DNA of 59,880 nucleotides from Escherichia phage vB_Eco_SLUR75. This document shows, in pieces, positions 30,620 to 57,490 of the stretch. Positions within the stretch are counted from its first letter, which is position 1. Every line of letters starts with the position of its first letter. The notes beneath the pieces are model-generated. The model did not search any database. It was given only the letters and a program-made list of their open reading frames with translations, and was not told the origin of the DNA. The stretch is taken from sequence record LR025197.1; one strand, written 5' to 3'. Position numbers and translations under genes: made by a program.

Positions 30620-30823
30620 ATGTGTGGTAATACTAACCGTTGCTGTCTAGGCAGTCCTGCAACACAAGCAGGTATACTTCAGGGGCAATTAGCTCAAGCA
30701 GCGTGTAATTGCAAAACTTTTCAACCAGTAGCGCCAACTCCTGTGTTTGTGAATGCTTTTGCACCGCCTGTTTTCAATACTTTTGGCGTATACCCATACG
30801 GTGCTTTCTTTCGTATATTCTAA
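30620..30823 (+). CDS. Small Cys-rich protein (67 aa)
   Basis: RBS AAGGAGG; CCLGS...CNCK cysteines; last gene of the forward arm. Confidence 0.45.
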   Translation: MCGNTNRCCLGSPATQAGILQGQLAQAACNCKTFQPVAPTPVFVNAFAPPVFNTFGVYPYGAFFRIF

Positions 30824-44569: not shown

Positions 44570-45478
44570 TCAATCTTTCCCGTAATAATTAGCTACTTGA
44601 TAGTTTCGACAACCAACTTTCTGCCCTTGCGTATCCACTGCGGCGGAATGGAAATTGCAATACCATGTTCCATCTTCTTTTGGTTCAAGGAATTGGCATG
44701 TGCGGCAGTTTACTTCCGGCATAGTTTTACGCCAGCATAGTGAGGAGTGATCGCACCATTTACATTCGAAGAAAGTGGAATCTTTAAATGCGCGGTCCGG
44801 AATATCTGTAGCAATAGCAATCTGCACACCACGATCAATATACATGTCCGCGGTAACAGGATCAAACGGAATAATTTCTGCGTAAACTTCATCGTCATTC
44901 TTGTTTACAGCAAGATATAACGCTGCGCCAAGACCTAGTTTTCGCATGTACACGTTCATCTGTACATAGTGCTCAGGTTTGGCTTCTTTAACACCTTTAG
45001 CTTTCAGCTTTTTAAAAGACTTATCGTTATGCGTCTTCATTTCGGTGAGCACAGGCATCCCAGGCTGCACGTCCGGACAACCTATAACCACACCATCGCA
45101 GGAACCGCCAAAGTGTCCGCCAGCTTCGCTGATACGGAACTGGTGTCCATTTTCGTCCTGCTGATAGACCTGCATACCTGCCGCAAGAAGCATAGCAATG
45201 AAACGCGCTTCTTCAAGATGTCCGCGGTTAAACAGTCGAAGCTGGCGTCCGTCAAACTCTTTGCGTGTAGCCCAGCGATATCCATAGAAAAGCTTGCGTG
45301 CGCATTGCTGCCCAATAAGGGAAGCGCCTAAGTGGCTGCGGTTACCGCTTTCAGGGCGATAAGCGTCTTCAATTGTGGGAATGACTACGCCAAGATACTT
45401 ACGGTAAGTCCCACCCTGATCTTTTTGCACACCGTCATTGATCGCTTGAAGTGTTTTTTCTGCAATATAAATAGCCAT
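44570..45478 (-). CDS. PD-(D/E)xK exonuclease, Cas4/RecB-like (302 aa)
   Basis: SCDGVV...LTEMKTH (D...ExK) and C-terminal CKWCDHSSLC (CxxCxxxxxC) with additional Cys. Confidence 0.5.
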   Translation of the reverse strand: MAIYIAEKTLQAINDGVQKDQGGTYRKYLGVVIPTIEDAYRPESGNRSHLGASLIGQQCARKLFYGYRWATRKEFDGRQLRLFNRGHLEEARFIAMLLAAGMQVYQQDENGHQFRISEAGGHFGGSCDGVVIGCPDVQPGMPVLTEMKTHNDKSFKKLKAKGVKEAKPEHYVQMNVYMRKLGLGAALYLAVNKNDDEVYAEIIPFDPVTADMYIDRGVQIAIATDIPDRAFKDSTFFECKWCDHSSLCWRKTMPEVNCRTCQFLEPKEDGTWYCNFHSAAVDTQGQKVGCRNYQVANYYGKD

Positions 45479-45543
45479 TGGAATACCTTAGAAAAATAAG
45501 CCGTCTTTCGACGGCTTATGGACACTACAGAGGGAGGGTTATC

Positions 45544-46431
45544 TTACTGCTGCCACGGCGGGACTGCTGCTTGTGCCGGATGCGGTTCAGCTTGCTGCTG
45601 CGGCTGAGCTTGCTGCTGAGGTGCTGCTGCCTGGCCCGGCTGTGCTACCTGCTGCGCCCACGGCTGCTGAGCTGCTTCCGGTGCTACTGGCTGTTGTACC
45701 GGAGCTTGCTGCACTGGCTGCTGAGGTGCTGCGTTTTGAGCAGGATTATCCCACGGCTGCGGTGCGGCATTCTGCCACGGTTGTGCTGCTGCGCCCTGCT
45801 GTGGTGCTTGTTGCTGCTGCACAGGCTGCTGAACTGGCTGCTGTTGCTGCACCGGAGCTTGCTGCTGTACAGGCGCTTGCTGTTGCTGAGCAAACGGGTT
45901 AGCTGCTGGTTGCTGTGGTGCTGCGCCCGGGAAAGCTGGCTGCTGAGCTGGCGCACCTGCACCGAACGGGTTAGCTACTGCCGCTTGAGCACCCATTGCT
46001 GGAGCACCTGCTTCTTTTTCCGCATACTTAACCGGATCGTTGATGTTAGCATAACCGTTAGGCTCGTTGCTGTCTTCATAACCTTCCTGAGAACGAACTT
46101 TCAGACGCAGGTTCAGCGGAATGTTATGCAGTTGAGCAGGAGTATCCCAGCGAATTACGCCAACCGCATGGGAAAGCGCGCCCAGTTGCTCGTAAGCGAT
46201 ACGCACGGTATCTTCGTTATCGTTGATAACGTTATAACGAGCGAAGATTTTACGACCTTTAGCAAAACCATCAATGATGCTAAACGTTACCTGGATCGCC
46301 ATACCGCCATTTTTGGTCGCTTTGAACTCAGACGCTTCAATTACCGCTTTATACCAACCTTTTGGCAATGCGCCATAAGAAGGTGCTTGATAGCTGCTCG
46401 CGTCAAAAGAGAATTTAGTTGGCATAGTCAT
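45544..46431 (-). CDS. Putative ssDNA-binding protein (DUF669-like) with Gln/Pro/Ala-rich tail (295 aa)
   Basis: Adjacent to and coupled with the Sak4-like ATPase gene; C-terminal low-complexity QQAPVQQQ tail. Confidence 0.4.
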   Translation of the reverse strand: MTMPTKFSFDASSYQAPSYGALPKGWYKAVIEASEFKATKNGGMAIQVTFSIIDGFAKGRKIFARYNVINDNEDTVRIAYEQLGALSHAVGVIRWDTPAQLHNIPLNLRLKVRSQEGYEDSNEPNGYANINDPVKYAEKEAGAPAMGAQAAVANPFGAGAPAQQPAFPGAAPQQPAANPFAQQQQAPVQQQAPVQQQQPVQQPVQQQQAPQQGAAAQPWQNAAPQPWDNPAQNAAPQQPVQQAPVQQPVAPEAAQQPWAQQVAQPGQAAAPQQQAQPQQQAEPHPAQAAVPPWQQ

Positions 46432-53125: not shown

Positions 53126-53149
53126 AAAGGGCCTTTCGGCCCTTTATTT
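53126..53149. terminator. Bidirectional terminator
   Basis: AAAGGGCC-tttc-GGCCCTTT hairpin with flanking A- and T-runs. Confidence 0.65.
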
Positions 53150-55490
53150 ATTCCTCTTCTCCTAAGTTTGCCATAATACCTTCAACATCTTGCGTAATGC
53201 GCCAAGCTGCGCCAGTGAATCCCAGTTTGATAGTCTCCTCCCGTGTTACCGGAACAAGAGCACCCATAGCAACCATCTCCTTGATCGTAGACTCAATTGC
53301 TGCGGACAATCCGTGGTGATAGTTTTTAAACGCGGACTTACTTGCAAGACGAGTAGTAATATCACCCCGCGTGATTATGCCTTCCTTACGCAGATCTACA
53401 CGTTTAACTTTCACCCAATCTTTAGTTAGATAATTCACACAAACCTGGCACATAGTACGGATACGAGCTTCGTCATTAGTACCGATACCCCCACTATGCC
53501 ATTCCTTCATAATGATATCCTGTCCATGACGCACAAAGTCCAAGGCCCATTGAACATGATAGGTCTGCACAACCGGATTGATCCAGTTTTCTCCCACAGC
53601 TAACAGGGCGGATAGACGTAACACCTTCAGGTGCGCACGGTTCCACGGCTGACGGATTGCTTCGTCTTTGGTTGCGTTAATATTACGGTCACATTCGTCG
53701 TTAAACTGATCACATAATGCTTCCGCATCCGGGCTAAACTGCACTTCAATACTTTGATGCTTTGCCATTGCGACTAAGGTGTGGTTAACAAGATGGCACA
53801 CCATATCCCGCAAATGCTGATCCATTGTAGTCTGCTGGTTCTTGTTTAAAGGTGGTCGATCCCCTTCATAGCGGACAACATGGAAACGGGATAAGAAACC
53901 ATCCTCCATCATTTCACGCGTCAACGCTTCAAAAAACGTGTCCGGTGTCGTTTCGCCCATGATGCTATAGGCCACACCTTGTTGAGCTTCCGTATTATTA
54001 GCCTTATCAGAATAAGACATACCACCGACAATAGACATCTGACCAGACTTTTGATAAACATCGGTGAGGTCGTTCTTGAAGCTTTGCATCGGTGAACCTG
54101 CTGGCGCTGTTGCCATTGCTTTAATAATCTTACCAAACTCACCGTTCAAGTTGATAAAAGATTGTTTGTCCGCAAAAGATTTACGCAACGCAGAGCCGGA
54201 AGCGCATCGGTCAAAAGATACAAAGCTATGAATCTGCGGAAACGGTTCCTGAAGCTGGCTAACTATATTAGATAGACCACTGTTCAACGTTTCTTTACCA
54301 ACACCAGAACGAGCAATAAGGACAAAATATCCATTAAGACCGGATTGAGGAATCTGCCAAACCTTCCCGCATACGCCAGCCATAAATCCTAGTGCTGTCA
54401 CAATAGAAATTTCTTTCACTGGTCGGACGGATGCTTTGTAGATGTACTTCGCAAGCTCCCCAGCAAGTCCCGGCGGCCAGTCAATAGCGGTTGCATCAAT
54501 AGATGTACTTTCTGCAACTACTGTCTGCCCCTGTGTTGTTTCAACAGTTACGGGCATTTCCGCTACCTGCTGCATTGCACTGTGTGCCGCTTGCATACGG
54601 GCAGCATAATCCCGCGCCAGCGCCGCTACGTTTTCCTGGGCAATGCGCTCACGCTCCATGCGACCGCGACACATACGCAAGCAACGGTCAATATGAACAT
54701 TGTTCTTATTAGCCTTCTCACGTTTGCCCAGTGCGCTATAACGGAACAGACGACGACATTGCTCATTACTTTCCGTGTAAAATGCATACATAGAAATAAG
54801 GGCAAGGTCTGCTTCAGACTGGGAAGGGAATCCCATTTCAACCCATTCACCATTAAATAACCGCGCATACTTATCACCGTTATCTGCTTCAAGTGCGCGC
54901 TGATGAATAGTTGCATCATCTTCTACCGGATCTTTTTCTACCAGTTCAATTTCATATGTCTTGCGCTGAAGATCAATTTCATTCACAAGCATCGTAAGGT
55001 AATGATCACGTTCTGCAACTGGTTTGTTGTAGACGGGATTGCCCGTGCAGATAATAAAACGCTCCTGACTATAAACCTCGACACCATCACGTCGACGACC
55101 TTTACCGATGTTACCTCTTAACCACAGGTGAACACCCAAGCCTGAGCGGCTCACTTCGGTGTAAGTATCGAACGCAGTCATGATCTGTTCGAAGCGGCGC
55201 AACTGCTCCGGCGTCGTGTGCTTCTTGGGATCAGGTTCATTGGTTGCATTCTTCACATCCAGGTCGATGCAGGTGAACGGGTCTTGTGCAGTAAGCACGA
55301 ATCCAATATAAGGTTTATTGAAATGAGCGGCGCAACCTTTGGCAGCTTCAAACGTCATAAGCATATCCGGATCGGTAACGTCCGCCGCCATCAAACGTCC
55401 AATATCGCTATCCCATACCAACGGCTTTTTATCCGCATCGGCGACCGCCCATTGTGGGAAAGCTTTAATTTCAGCGGGAAACAGTTCCAT
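53148..55490 (-). CDS. Primase-polymerase / helicase fusion (780 aa)
   Basis: N-terminal archaeo-eukaryotic-primase-like motifs CIDLDVKN and GLGVHLWLRGN; central P-loop LIARSGVGKETL. Confidence 0.6.
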   Translation of the reverse strand: MELFPAEIKAFPQWAVADADKKPLVWDSDIGRLMAADVTDPDMLMTFEAAKGCAAHFNKPYIGFVLTAQDPFTCIDLDVKNATNEPDPKKHTTPEQLRRFEQIMTAFDTYTEVSRSGLGVHLWLRGNIGKGRRRDGVEVYSQERFIICTGNPVYNKPVAERDHYLTMLVNEIDLQRKTYEIELVEKDPVEDDATIHQRALEADNGDKYARLFNGEWVEMGFPSQSEADLALISMYAFYTESNEQCRRLFRYSALGKREKANKNNVHIDRCLRMCRGRMERERIAQENVAALARDYAARMQAAHSAMQQVAEMPVTVETTQGQTVVAESTSIDATAIDWPPGLAGELAKYIYKASVRPVKEISIVTALGFMAGVCGKVWQIPQSGLNGYFVLIARSGVGKETLNSGLSNIVSQLQEPFPQIHSFVSFDRCASGSALRKSFADKQSFINLNGEFGKIIKAMATAPAGSPMQSFKNDLTDVYQKSGQMSIVGGMSYSDKANNTEAQQGVAYSIMGETTPDTFFEALTREMMEDGFLSRFHVVRYEGDRPPLNKNQQTTMDQHLRDMVCHLVNHTLVAMAKHQSIEVQFSPDAEALCDQFNDECDRNINATKDEAIRQPWNRAHLKVLRLSALLAVGENWINPVVQTYHVQWALDFVRHGQDIIMKEWHSGGIGTNDEARIRTMCQVCVNYLTKDWVKVKRVDLRKEGIITRGDITTRLASKSAFKNYHHGLSAAIESTIKEMVAMGALVPVTREETIKLGFTGAAWRITQDVEGIMANLGEEE

Positions 55491-55496
55491 ATTAAA

Positions 55497-55700
55497 TTAA
55501 GACCTCCGACGCTTATCGCCTTGCATCTTTTCCAGGGCGGGTACTGCTAAGGAACGTTTGTAGATGTACTGGTTAGCAATTCTGATGGCGCCCGGGATGC
55601 TGTCACGTATGCGCGACATCTTAAACTTAGATATGCCATAACGGTCTTCAATTTCCGCCGCCGTTATGTAGTTCAAATCAAATTCTGATTCGTGATCCAT
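55497..55700 (-). CDS. Small HTH DNA-binding protein (67 aa)
   Basis: ATG at M19 of track ORF with RBS GGAGGG; helix-turn-helix-like ITAAEIEDRYGISKFKMSRI. Confidence 0.5.
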   Translation of the reverse strand: MDHESEFDLNYITAAEIEDRYGISKFKMSRIRDSIPGAIRIANQYIYKRSLAVPALEKMQGDKRRRS

Positions 55701-55765: not shown

Positions 55766-56494
55766 TTATTGCGGAGTTGTGATAATATGGTTACCAACTT
55801 CTAACATAACGTCTTGAGGCTCCCGTCCCTGTCTTAAGCTAATGAGCCAATTATCAATATTAGGAAGAATATTTTTAGCCTGCTCAGAATCCCTGTATAG
55901 TGCAAGATCTACCCATTGAGCCCCAAGCTTCACACGGATAGCGGTAGCGGTTTCGTAATGGTGGAGGGAACACGTAGGCCAGCGACCTCGATTGTCCCAG
56001 TCCTGGATATCGCCGCTCCGGCGCATTCTGTACCAGCGATGGGTTAGTTTATCCATTTCCTTATCCGTCAAAGCATCCCCTTTGAGCAAAGCTTGGCGCT
56101 GTATCCAGGCCTTGAGCTCGGCGTTTTCCTTGCGCCCGGTTTTACCCTTAACTACTTTTACCTTCAGTGCTTCCTCATAGGGATCGTTACCCTTGCCCAT
56201 GTGGTAATTGAATTTGCCCGTATAGCTGCGAAGCTCTTTGGCGTCCAGTTCATGTCCCAGCTTATCGCTAACCCATGCAAGGAAAGCCGTACGCTCTGCA
56301 TCCAGTTTACCCGCTTTTTGTCTTACCGCTTTTTTAACTGGTTGCTCCACATCTTCGTTGAAGTAATCCTCCACCATAGCAAGCGCCTGAGCCTTAGTGG
56401 GTACGCCCCGTAACCGCGAGCACGCTTGCACGACCCAGGCAGCAAAGCACAAATCCTTGACCACAGTTTTAGATGTAATAGTTTCTTCGCTCAT
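55766..56494 (-). CDS. Hypothetical protein, possibly replication-associated (242 aa)
   Basis: Strong RBS AGGAGG; directly downstream of the iteron/AT-rich region. Confidence 0.5.
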   Translation of the reverse strand: MSEETITSKTVVKDLCFAAWVVQACSRLRGVPTKAQALAMVEDYFNEDVEQPVKKAVRQKAGKLDAERTAFLAWVSDKLGHELDAKELRSYTGKFNYHMGKGNDPYEEALKVKVVKGKTGRKENAELKAWIQRQALLKGDALTDKEMDKLTHRWYRMRRSGDIQDWDNRGRWPTCSLHHYETATAIRVKLGAQWVDLALYRDSEQAKNILPNIDNWLISLRQGREPQDVMLEVGNHIITTPQ

Positions 56495-57163
56495 AAATCC
56501 TCCTAGTGAACTGGTAATGCCACTATAAAACAGCTATTAGCTATTTGCAAGAATTGTTTTAATATAGTGCTTAGTGGCGTACATAGTGGGCAAAAACGTG
56601 TATAGTACGCCGTTACTGGCTTTGTAAAAGTTTGCCACTATAAACCACTATCCCACTATTCACTAATTTTTTATTTTTACACAGAGCAAAGTTTATAAGT
56701 TTACGGTTTCCCCCTTATTACCCCGTTTTCAAACAAAGAATTAGTAGTAGTAGTGAAAACGTGTAAATGCCACTATCACTACTATACTATTAATTATCTG
56801 AAAAAAGTTGGGAGTATACCCCTATAAACTTATAAACTTTCAGTCAACTAACTAAAATAAAACTAATTAAACTAATATTAATAATAACTATAAATATATA
56901 TAAAATAAGGATTTATTATTATTGTATATAGTACCTATTGGTATTATGTGATGAGTTTATAGTCACTAAATAAACTCTATAAATTTTAATAAACCTGAAC
57001 GGATGCAGATCAAAAATGAGAAGTCAAGTGCTTTTGAGGGAAATTTATTGAACTATTGTGATCGGGAGGTATATCAAGCTATAATGCGCTTAATCGCGGG
57101 ATATTGGAGGAGGACTTTATTGCGCGGTTAACCGGACCAGTAGGAGGGCTGGCCCGGAGTAGT
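56495..57163. promoter_or_regulatory. Candidate replication origin / control region: CCACTAT iterons plus AT-rich tract
   Basis: At least five direct and two inverted copies of CCACTAT within about 56520..56776, two copies of AAACGTGTA, then about 200 bp of extreme AT-richness (about 56800..57000). Confidence 0.45.
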
Positions 57164-57490
57164 TTAGAGCTGTACAGGTATGAAGTGGGCTAATGTGTCG
57201 TCGGACATGATACCCGACAATTTTTCGCTTACCCATTCGGACCAAATGCTATCCGGTTCCTGGCGGTGTACAAACCAGATTTCGGATGTGCCTTCTTTGC
57301 GCATCGGCTGCACTTCTACAAGGAACTTGTCCTGCATGAGGCGGGTGAAGCATACGCTAGTCATTGGAACTGGCTTTTCGTGTTTATTGTAATAAGGAGT
57401 CAGTAATTTATTTCCGAAGTTGGCAACTTCATAAACTGTTCCTTTGCGAAGACCTCTGATGTCTGTGTAAGAGCGGATAAATGTTTTCAT
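57164..57490 (-). CDS. Hypothetical protein (108 aa)
   Basis: ORF with AGGAG-like RBS upstream. Confidence 0.5.
   Translation of the reverse strand: MKTFIRSYTDIRGLRKGTVYEVANFGNKLLTPYYNKHEKPVPMTSVCFTRLMQDKFLVEVQPMRKEGTSEIWFVHRQEPDSIWSEWVSEKLSGIMSDDTLAHFIPVQL

Follow-up and report, generated by a model that had tools for sequence, protein, structure and literature searches.

A repeat-bearing intergenic region as a candidate replication origin of Escherichia phage vB_Eco_SLUR75

What is the role of the 670-bp non-coding gap at the head of the replication genes of Escherichia phage vB_Eco_SLUR75? The stretch of DNA analyzed here (LR025197.1; 59,880 bp, hereafter the window) is the complete or nearly complete genome of an E. 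coli siphovirus belonging to Seuratvirus (Queuovirinae). According to the list of open reading frames (ORFs), the gap (56495-57163) is flanked by the minus-strand genes 57164-57490 and 55766-56494. The latter encodes a 242-aa orphan protein and is followed on the same strand by genes for a 67-aa winged helix-turn-helix (HTH) protein (55497-55700) and a 780-aa primase-polymerase/helicase (53148-55490; hereafter the primase-helicase), which thus lies downstream of the gap on the same strand, as a first-pass annotation made from the sequence letters had stated. That annotation read the gap as a candidate origin of replication. Our computational checks agree, and we moderately favor the view that the gap is an origin built from iterons and an unwinding element, in which initiator and iterons form a swappable cassette. 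The proximal repeat sits on a −10 hexamer, so the gap is likely to serve as an operator as well. Searches of the open literature found no origin described for Seuratvirus or Queuovirinae.

We began with the CCACTAT repeats. The whole window holds eight exact copies, compared to 5.6 expected, and six of them lie within 257 bp of the gap (56520-56776), the other two being outside it. Five of these six are direct (+ strand; 56520, 56635, 56645, 56653, and 56770) and one is inverted (− strand; 56583). The first-pass count of at least five direct copies therefore holds with exact matches, whereas its two inverted copies include only one exact copy; the further inverted units, GCACTAT at 56564 and CCACTAA at 56571, each carry one mismatch. 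One-mismatch direct copies are also found at 56779 and 56819. Counting exact and one-mismatch copies in both orientations, the iteron field spans 56520-56785. At least five of eight sites fell inside 260 bp in 0 of 200,000 random placements, and with ~0.09 copies expected in the gap, the Poisson P value is about 7e-10. The gap thus contains short repeats clustered beyond chance, as an iteron origin should, and this substantiates the earlier description of a repeat-bearing gap of ~670 bp. Related words behave in the same way: the gap has 13 occurrences of the pentamer CACTA versus 0.75 expected and contains all four genomic copies of GCCACTA. CCACTAT shows no enrichment outside the gap, which argues against a global transcription factor.

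The repeats are arranged as three inverted copies (56564-56589) facing three direct copies (56635-56659), spaced 10 and 8 bp, with a third group at 56742-56785 that forms the inner arms of a palindrome. The (TAG)4 run listed by the first-pass annotation is indeed present on the + strand at 56742-56753 and is a reverse-oriented, degenerate iteron arm of that inner palindrome. The two copies of AAAACGTGTA were likewise located, at 56593 and 56756; because the close relative KS_A8 has lost one copy, this 10-mer was given little weight. A role of sites for the host factors DnaA and IHF was considered and rejected. A single, weak 9-mer resembling a relaxed DnaA box, TTTTACACA, is present at 56675-56683 (+), but it is not conserved in the Seurat type, and such 9-mers are not enriched genome-wide (5 found versus 7.7 expected); no IHF consensus site was found in the gap.

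The repeat field adjoins an AT-rich tract at 56844-56993. With 15.3% GC, this is the GC minimum of the genome (the next-lowest 150-bp window has 29.3% GC), in line with the extreme AT-rich stretch described from the letters. By composition, the tract is an AT-rich element next to the iterons, and it is a candidate DNA-unwinding element. Within it are tandem 15-mers (56846-56875) and an AT-rich core (~56890-56951) that hardly varies and is common to the classical repeat types, the Skure type, and the divergent metagenomic relatives L019 and L020. To the left of the tract lies an imperfect 153-bp palindrome (56688-56840), whose outer arms (56688-56703 and 56825-56840) are complementary at 16/16 positions and whose inner arms (56742-55 and 56771-84) consist of iteron-like units. 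Folded as single-strand DNA, the palindrome gave a z score of −4.5, and 0 of 200 shuffled sequences were as stable. Phage Greed has an equivalent palindrome with a different arm sequence but the same 121-nt spacing (z = −4.6); thus, the symmetry itself appears to be maintained. A second repeat family, TATAAACT(T), has four of its six genomic copies in the gap, and a conserved AAACTTTCAGTCAAC element borders the AT-rich tract and is found again, with inverted partners, in the gaps of Skure-type phages. The TATAAACT/AAACTTTCAGTCAAC repeats lie at 56834-56848, 56688-56703, 56825-56840, and 56951-56986. Both elements could be sites for a conserved factor.

We next compared the locus among relatives. 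The 2.2 kb surrounding the gap is 96.6 to 98% identical to phages SHIN8 and KurtStettler (Bas22). In all Seuratviruses examined, a gap of 630 to 830 bp with ~33 to 36% GC is found at this place, except in the rearranged Dru_SM1, where a 1152 bp stretch contains extra annotated ORFs; the gaps of the metagenomic relatives L019, L020, and L022 measure 606 to 812 bp with 37% GC. The repeats fall into types. CCACTAT is found in the window, SHIN8, KurtStettler, KS_A8, SA126VB, Greed, Dru_SM1, and L019; ACCCTAT in Seurat, CAjan, slur01, and L020; ACCCCTA in L022; and TGGAATAA in Skure, GottfriedDienst, and OddieOddie. The window and Seurat have a common layout consisting of an inverted group, a direct triplet, and a distal group. 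What is exchanged between types is a segment made up of the genes for the HTH and 242-aa proteins and the half of the gap that bears the repeats. In the Skure type, TGGAATAA repeats occupy both sides of the AT-rich core, up to ~700 bp upstream of the first gene, and an origin therefore fits better than an operator. Nine further metagenomic or viral loci agree with the pairing of repeats and proteins, and scans of viral and metagenome contigs revealed no new cassette types; the cassette sample is small, comprising some four repeat types and perhaps three to four swaps that occurred independently.

Which protein matches the repeats? The primase-helicase is 95 to 99.9% identical where compared across repeat types, and the window protein is 99.9% identical to that of CAjan, an ACCCTAT-type phage. 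The HTH and 242-aa proteins both differ between repeat types. Recombinant loci ruled out the HTH protein as the specificity determinant: in L022, the HTH protein is 100% identical to that of Seurat, yet the repeats are ACCCCTA, not ACCCTAT, and in L020, ACCCTAT repeats accompany an HTH protein that falls in the CCACTAT clade (70 to 75% identity; 52% to Seurat's). Residues ~55-110 of the 242-aa protein, which include two predicted helices, split exactly into CCACTA and ACCC(C)TA classes in 8/8 representatives. Moreover, L019 and L020 share ~95% identity on both flanks, and what fails to align is the half of the gap that carries the repeats, together with the 242-aa gene minus the codons of its conserved N terminus. 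Since these recombinants tie the repeat class to the 242-aa protein and not to the HTH protein, the former is the better candidate binder. Comparative data thus favor one of the two binders named in the first-pass annotation, the 242-aa protein, and disfavor the other. A nearby cognate partner that co-varies with the repeats is present at the level of sequence, with the 242-aa protein as the candidate iteron-binding initiator. All types conserve residues 8-46 of this protein, suggesting that this stretch contacts a constant partner.

The 242-aa protein (PHROG 27223) belongs to a narrow family: a search of 5.8 billion proteins gave only 11 clusters, each of them Seuratvirus-like, and nothing further that was convincing came from a profile search against 1.8 billion representatives. 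No match was found in Pfam or NCBIfam, and neither homology nor fold comparison pointed to a function. In the structure model, a C-terminal beta-beta-beta-alpha unit has a topology like that of AP2 or integrase arm-binding domains, so that an AP2-like reading of this domain would be a guess from the model; profile comparison with the AP2-like protein of Skure found nothing. In the Skure type (591-1134 of locus L011), two small genes of 93 and 89 aa replace the 242-aa gene, and the HTH homologue is present. The 93-aa product has sub-threshold matches to AP2-domain and HNH-endonuclease families; the 89-aa product has no family match and shows an AP2-like sequence pattern by eye only. Judged from their sequences, both proteins are candidate binders of the TGGAATAA repeats.

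The 67-aa HTH protein (PHROG 11967) is a candidate accessory DNA-binding protein. Its AF2 model (pLDDT 86) is a beta-alpha-alpha-beta-beta-alpha winged helix with a topology similar to MerR, Xis, and HTH_17 proteins. The top Foldseek matches, namely, Rpp, Tn916 Xis, BldC, MerR-family proteins, and RdfS, are of the MerR/excisionase class and non-significant (E > 0.1). The window protein has no match in Pfam, and its PSTCR4 homologue scored 24.4 bits against a cut-off of 27 for the HTH_17/MerR Pfam models. In Nipunavirus, Amoyvirus, and Craquatrovirus, genes for HTH homologues immediately precede the primase gene. The primase-helicase (PHROG 3022) carries an NrS-1-type helix-bundle domain (PF22763), and in NrS-1 primase-polymerase, the preferred template site of this domain is GTGG (PMC8718748). 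ATAGTGG, the reverse complement of CCACTAT, contains GTGG. Reading of the repeats by the helix-bundle domain was nonetheless ruled out, as the ACCCTAT and TGGAATAA types lack GTG while the primase is nearly identical; the GTGG inside ATAGTGG is probably a coincidence.

Strand asymmetry was then evaluated. The first-pass annotation had proposed GC skew as a check, and the detrended cumulative skew reaches its lowest point within the AT-rich tract, at 56908, and its highest at 30711, in agreement with an origin here. Among the leftward genes of KurtStettler, the coding-strand GC skew at third codon positions was −0.14 for the five genes right of the gap and +0.07 for the 30 genes left of it (Fisher P = 0.002; Mann-Whitney P = 0.002). 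A misassigned strand behind this switch was ruled out by an excess of third-position substitutions in the − frames of the two larger right-hand genes (33/50 and 62/83). Furthermore, the switch is located at the gap and not at the point ~1.7 kb further right where, in the KurtStettler annotation, leftward and rightward transcription diverge. The switch at the gap is the pattern expected of a bidirectional origin.

Repeats at the head of an operon may also control its transcription. A sigma-70-like promoter candidate for the replication operon, TTGCAA-17-TATAGT, is present on the − strand at 56522-56550 (9/12 matches), ~20 nt upstream of the ribosome-binding site AGGAGG of the 242-aa gene (56499-56504), and its −10 hexamer overlaps the proximal iteron at 56520-56526. 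Seurat and SA126VB have equivalent promoter-like sites that overlap their own iterons, and the depositors of SA126VB annotated a promoter among the repeats and a terminator at the hairpin described below. The gap holds three promoter-like matches versus 3.4 expected from shuffled sequence, and 56522-56550 is a candidate promoter judged by its sequence. To the right of the AT-rich tract, the block at ~56996-57161 is almost invariant among relatives. It includes a conserved 44-nt core, TTGAACTATTGTGATCGGGAGGTATATCAAGCTATAAT (57042-57085, +), which ends in a promoter-like TTGTGA-18-TATAAT (57056-57085; 10/12 matches) oriented away from the tract. This core, including its spacer, is kept in every lineage compared, among them L019, L020, L022, and Dru_SM1, and in Dru_SM1, the sequence to its right has been replaced. 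Directly past the stop codon of 57164-57490 is a − strand hairpin, CCGGGCCAG-N8-CTGGTCCGG (57132-57157), whose RNA pairs perfectly with one G-U pair and which probably marks where the transcript of the upstream small genes has its 3′ end or is terminated. The hairpin region and the upstream gene of Dru_SM1 no longer align to the window.

These sites bear on the main rival explanation, in which the gap is purely a transcriptional control region. The repeats would be operators of an autoregulator, either the 242-aa or the HTH protein; the gap would separate an early leftward transcript, ending at the 57132-57157 hairpin, from a middle operon for replication; the AT-rich tract would be a promoter, an UP-element, or curved DNA; and the origin would be elsewhere or undefined, with replication being, for example, recombination driven. 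The −10 hexamer inside the proximal repeat, its counterparts in Seurat and SA126VB, and the strongly conserved promoter-like core at 57056-57085 all speak for such control. So does the fact that the MerR/Xis-like class of the 67-aa protein, a non-significant fold match, includes regulators that bind direct repeats, such as BldC, and regulator/operator pairs likewise co-vary as cassettes. However, at least 9 to 13 sites over 270 bp exceed the needs of autoregulation, Skure-type sites lie 650 to 700 bp upstream, beyond the AT-rich core, and the promoter-like matches are at chance level. Pure transcriptional control also leaves the skew switch and the unique 15%-GC tract unexplained, and CCACTAT is not used elsewhere in the genome. 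We regard this explanation as a serious alternative, if rather unlikely on its own; a promoter/operator region may coexist with an origin, given the proximal repeat that overlaps the −10 hexamer.

A second alternative places the function at the RNA level, as a structured non-coding RNA or a leader/attenuator, with the palindrome at 56688-56840 acting as an RNA hairpin in a transcript from 57056-57085 (+) or in read-through from the upstream gene (−). The block at 56995-57165 is nearly 100% conserved, and its − strand RNA folds better than shuffled sequences (z = −2.6), but the + strand fold is unremarkable (z = −0.7). A small hairpin directly after TATAAT is kept with different stems (GCG/CGC, CTGC/GCAG, and GTGC/GCAC) in three lineages, as seen by eye in the alignment, and the palindrome has both its fold score and arms that changed together in Greed. 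Nonetheless, mirror-oriented, protein-binding repeats that produce a palindrome are expected in an origin too, and it is the repeat field that varies, in step with a protein gene, a sign of protein-DNA recognition. Searches with Rfam covariance models gave 0 matches at E <= 1 on either strand of 56300-57400, and no tRNA or tmRNA was found in the gap region. A 42-codon ORF on the + strand (57003-57131), annotated as a coding sequence (CDS) in KS_A8, is probably no gene, with substitutions of 3/2/4 and hence no codon-position bias, and Skure-type phages lack its start codon. Altogether, an RNA-level function seems very improbable.

Partition sites of the parC/ParR type, too, are arrays of short repeats, direct and inverted, that precede an autoregulated operon. 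The gap could accordingly be another kind of protein-loading site, such as a centromere-like/partition, packaging, or recombination site or a decoy/sink, and its position at a mosaic junction, with HNH endonuclease genes nearby in relatives, would suit some such role. Yet these phages are virulent (PMC6884629), and virulent phages would not be expected to need partition. The genome ends lie ~9 kb from the gap, as partly inferred from the run of packaging/structural genes to the lysis cassette in related GenBank records; the neighbors are replication genes; and the unique AT-rich tract and the skew minimum would be left unaccounted for. We give this alternative very little credence.

An origin is the best fit because it accommodates the AT-rich tract, the repeats, their co-variation with the 242-aa protein, the constant primase-helicase, the two-sided repeats of the Skure type, and the skew switch together. 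In the layout seen here, at least nine short repeats (core CCACTAT, in both orientations) lie between the first gene of the operon and the 15%-GC tract. From it we infer a course of events that runs from protein binding through melting to the loading of the helicase, along with autoregulation. The 242-aa protein would bind them through its type-specific part, for which residues ~55-110 are the best candidate, and the resulting protein array would distort the DNA so that the AT-rich tract opens. The N terminus of the 242-aa protein (residues 8-46), perhaps with the winged-helix protein, would then recruit the primase-helicase, which would begin bidirectional synthesis. With the proximal repeat overlapping the −10 hexamer, the 242-aa protein probably also autoregulates the operon. 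More tentatively, and with rather less confidence than in the origin itself, we suggest that a three-part orphan initiator family, not recognized before, and its own 7-bp repeats constitute a swappable cassette of origin specificity that is used with a constant primase-helicase and AT-rich core.

Several observations weigh against reading the gap as an origin. The 7-bp core is much shorter than classical iterons of 17 to 22 bp, and its spacing is irregular. No match was found between the 242-aa protein and any known initiator, the Rep_3/RepA and lambda O types included, by sequence or fold, and its structure model is of moderate confidence (pLDDT 75, pTM 0.43). A repressor and its operators would co-vary too, the proximal repeat overlaps a promoter-like site, and the annotated promoter of SA126VB is among the repeats. 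The skew argument depends on a small sample, five small genes that may be early or differently descended and may differ in composition for that reason. In addition, the equivalent place in Nipunavirus JG012 holds no more than three ATTAACAC repeats and a small AT-rich patch, so that the elaborate architecture does not extend throughout the subfamily; in Amoyvirus R7M, three repeats are present.

How does the proposed origin relate to known systems? In the P1, F, and pSC101 replicons, an AT-rich element, iterons, and an initiator gene are found together, with a promoter embedded in the iterons. Iteron plasmids (P1 oriR/RepA, F, pSC101, and R6K) resemble the gap in the order of these elements, in cognate iteron/initiator specificities, and in a promoter-like site within the iterons. 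They differ in having regularly phased iterons of 17 to 22 bp instead of short irregular repeats and initiators of the Rep_3-type winged-helix class, to which the 242-aa protein shows no such match; moreover, only one weak DnaA-box-like site is present here. The lambda ori lies inside the O gene, contains four 19-bp iterons, and recruits host DnaB through P. As here, the iterons of lambdoid ori/O systems co-vary with the DNA-binding part of the initiator while the partner-interaction part is conserved, cassettes are exchanged, and an AT-rich region adjoins the iterons. In contrast, the site in the window is intergenic, its repeats are short, and the primase-polymerase/helicase is phage encoded; no match of the 242-aa protein to phage O was found in Pfam. 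The ori and crr of satellite phage P4 have octamer-sized repeats in both orientations and are used with a multifunctional primase-helicase, and in this they are similar to the gap, but the alpha protein of P4 binds the repeats itself, and ori and crr are two separated sites.

Origins assisted by transcription (the T7 primary origin, T4 oriF/oriG, and gidA-activated oriC) share with the gap a promoter-like sequence, here 57056-57085, at the border of an AT-rich tract. By analogy, transcription from this candidate promoter could aid opening via negative supercoiling. The T7 and T4 origins are not known to contain iteron arrays, unlike this gap, where the promoter is a candidate from sequence. 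The origins of SaPIs, or phage-inducible chromosomal islands, which combine a Rep helicase with iterons, offer a further likeness: short bidirectional repeats flank an AT-rich center and are recognized in an element-specific manner (PMC9371898). SaPI repeats are 5 to 6 nt, compared to the 7-nt core here, in 6 to 12 copies and both orientations around the AT-rich center. As in the phages studied here, specificity differs among related SaPI elements and the origin adjoins a primase/helicase module, and the repeats flank the AT-rich core on either side, as they do in Skure-type relatives. However, the SaPI helicase recognizes the iterons itself via a C-terminal winged helix, whereas here a separate orphan protein tracks specificity, and the SaPI origin is 3′ of rep, whereas the site described here is 5′ of the operon. 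A helicase that carries the iteron specificity, as in SaPIs, does not fit the near identity of the primase-helicase across repeat types. Because there is no Rep or O match and the helicase does not carry the iteron specificity, we class the gap as working like an iteron origin, not as a member of one of these families.

On the more tentative reading of a specificity cassette, closely related virulent phages would be split into replicon types CCACTAT, ACCCTAT, ACCCCTA, and TGGAATAA, and small AP2-like proteins would stand in for the 242-aa initiator in the TGGAATAA type. If the gap is an origin, a function would be assigned to the orphan family PHROG 27223, and the locus would show how an NrS-1-type primase-polymerase/helicase reaches its start site. 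Queuovirinae have DNA modified with 7-deazaguanine and include model phages of the BASEL collection; a defined origin with its cognate initiator would aid phage engineering and replication-coupled study of DNA modification. Exchange of initiator and repeats also raises questions about the specificity of replication during co-infection and about escape from defenses that sense replication proteins.

Other features of the locus are as follows. The right-hand, upstream gene (57164-57490, −) belongs to PHROG 25978, and further downstream on the − strand, beyond the primase-helicase gene, lie the remaining replication, recombination, and 7-deazaguanine genes, as judged from the KurtStettler annotation. 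In SHIN8 and KurtStettler, a 44-codon CDS is annotated across the repeat field (− strand; L001 2821-2955 and L004 1821-1955, corresponding to ~56503-56637 of the window). Since the window lacks an ORF of at least 40 codons at that place, the annotation is probably spurious. In SHIN8 (L001 1592-1818), KurtStettler, and KS_A8, the HTH and primase genes are separated by an extra gene of ~70 codons, which is missing from the window at 55491-55496 (a 227-bp indel). HNH homing-endonuclease insertions occur around the gap or the primase start in Dru_SM1, CAjan, and L022 (L010 23-547; L008 2653-3135; L022 1224-1688 and 3564-4097), and these nearby insertions in relatives mark the gap region as a hot spot of mosaicism. 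Elsewhere in the window, 45001-46000 reaches 55.5% GC over 1 kb against a background of 42 to 50%. Finally, Aeromonas phage SD04 (L007; MH230177.1) is ~82 to 94% identical to the E. coli Seuratviruses across the locus and has a ~2.3 kb unannotated stretch from the primase to the next annotated gene.

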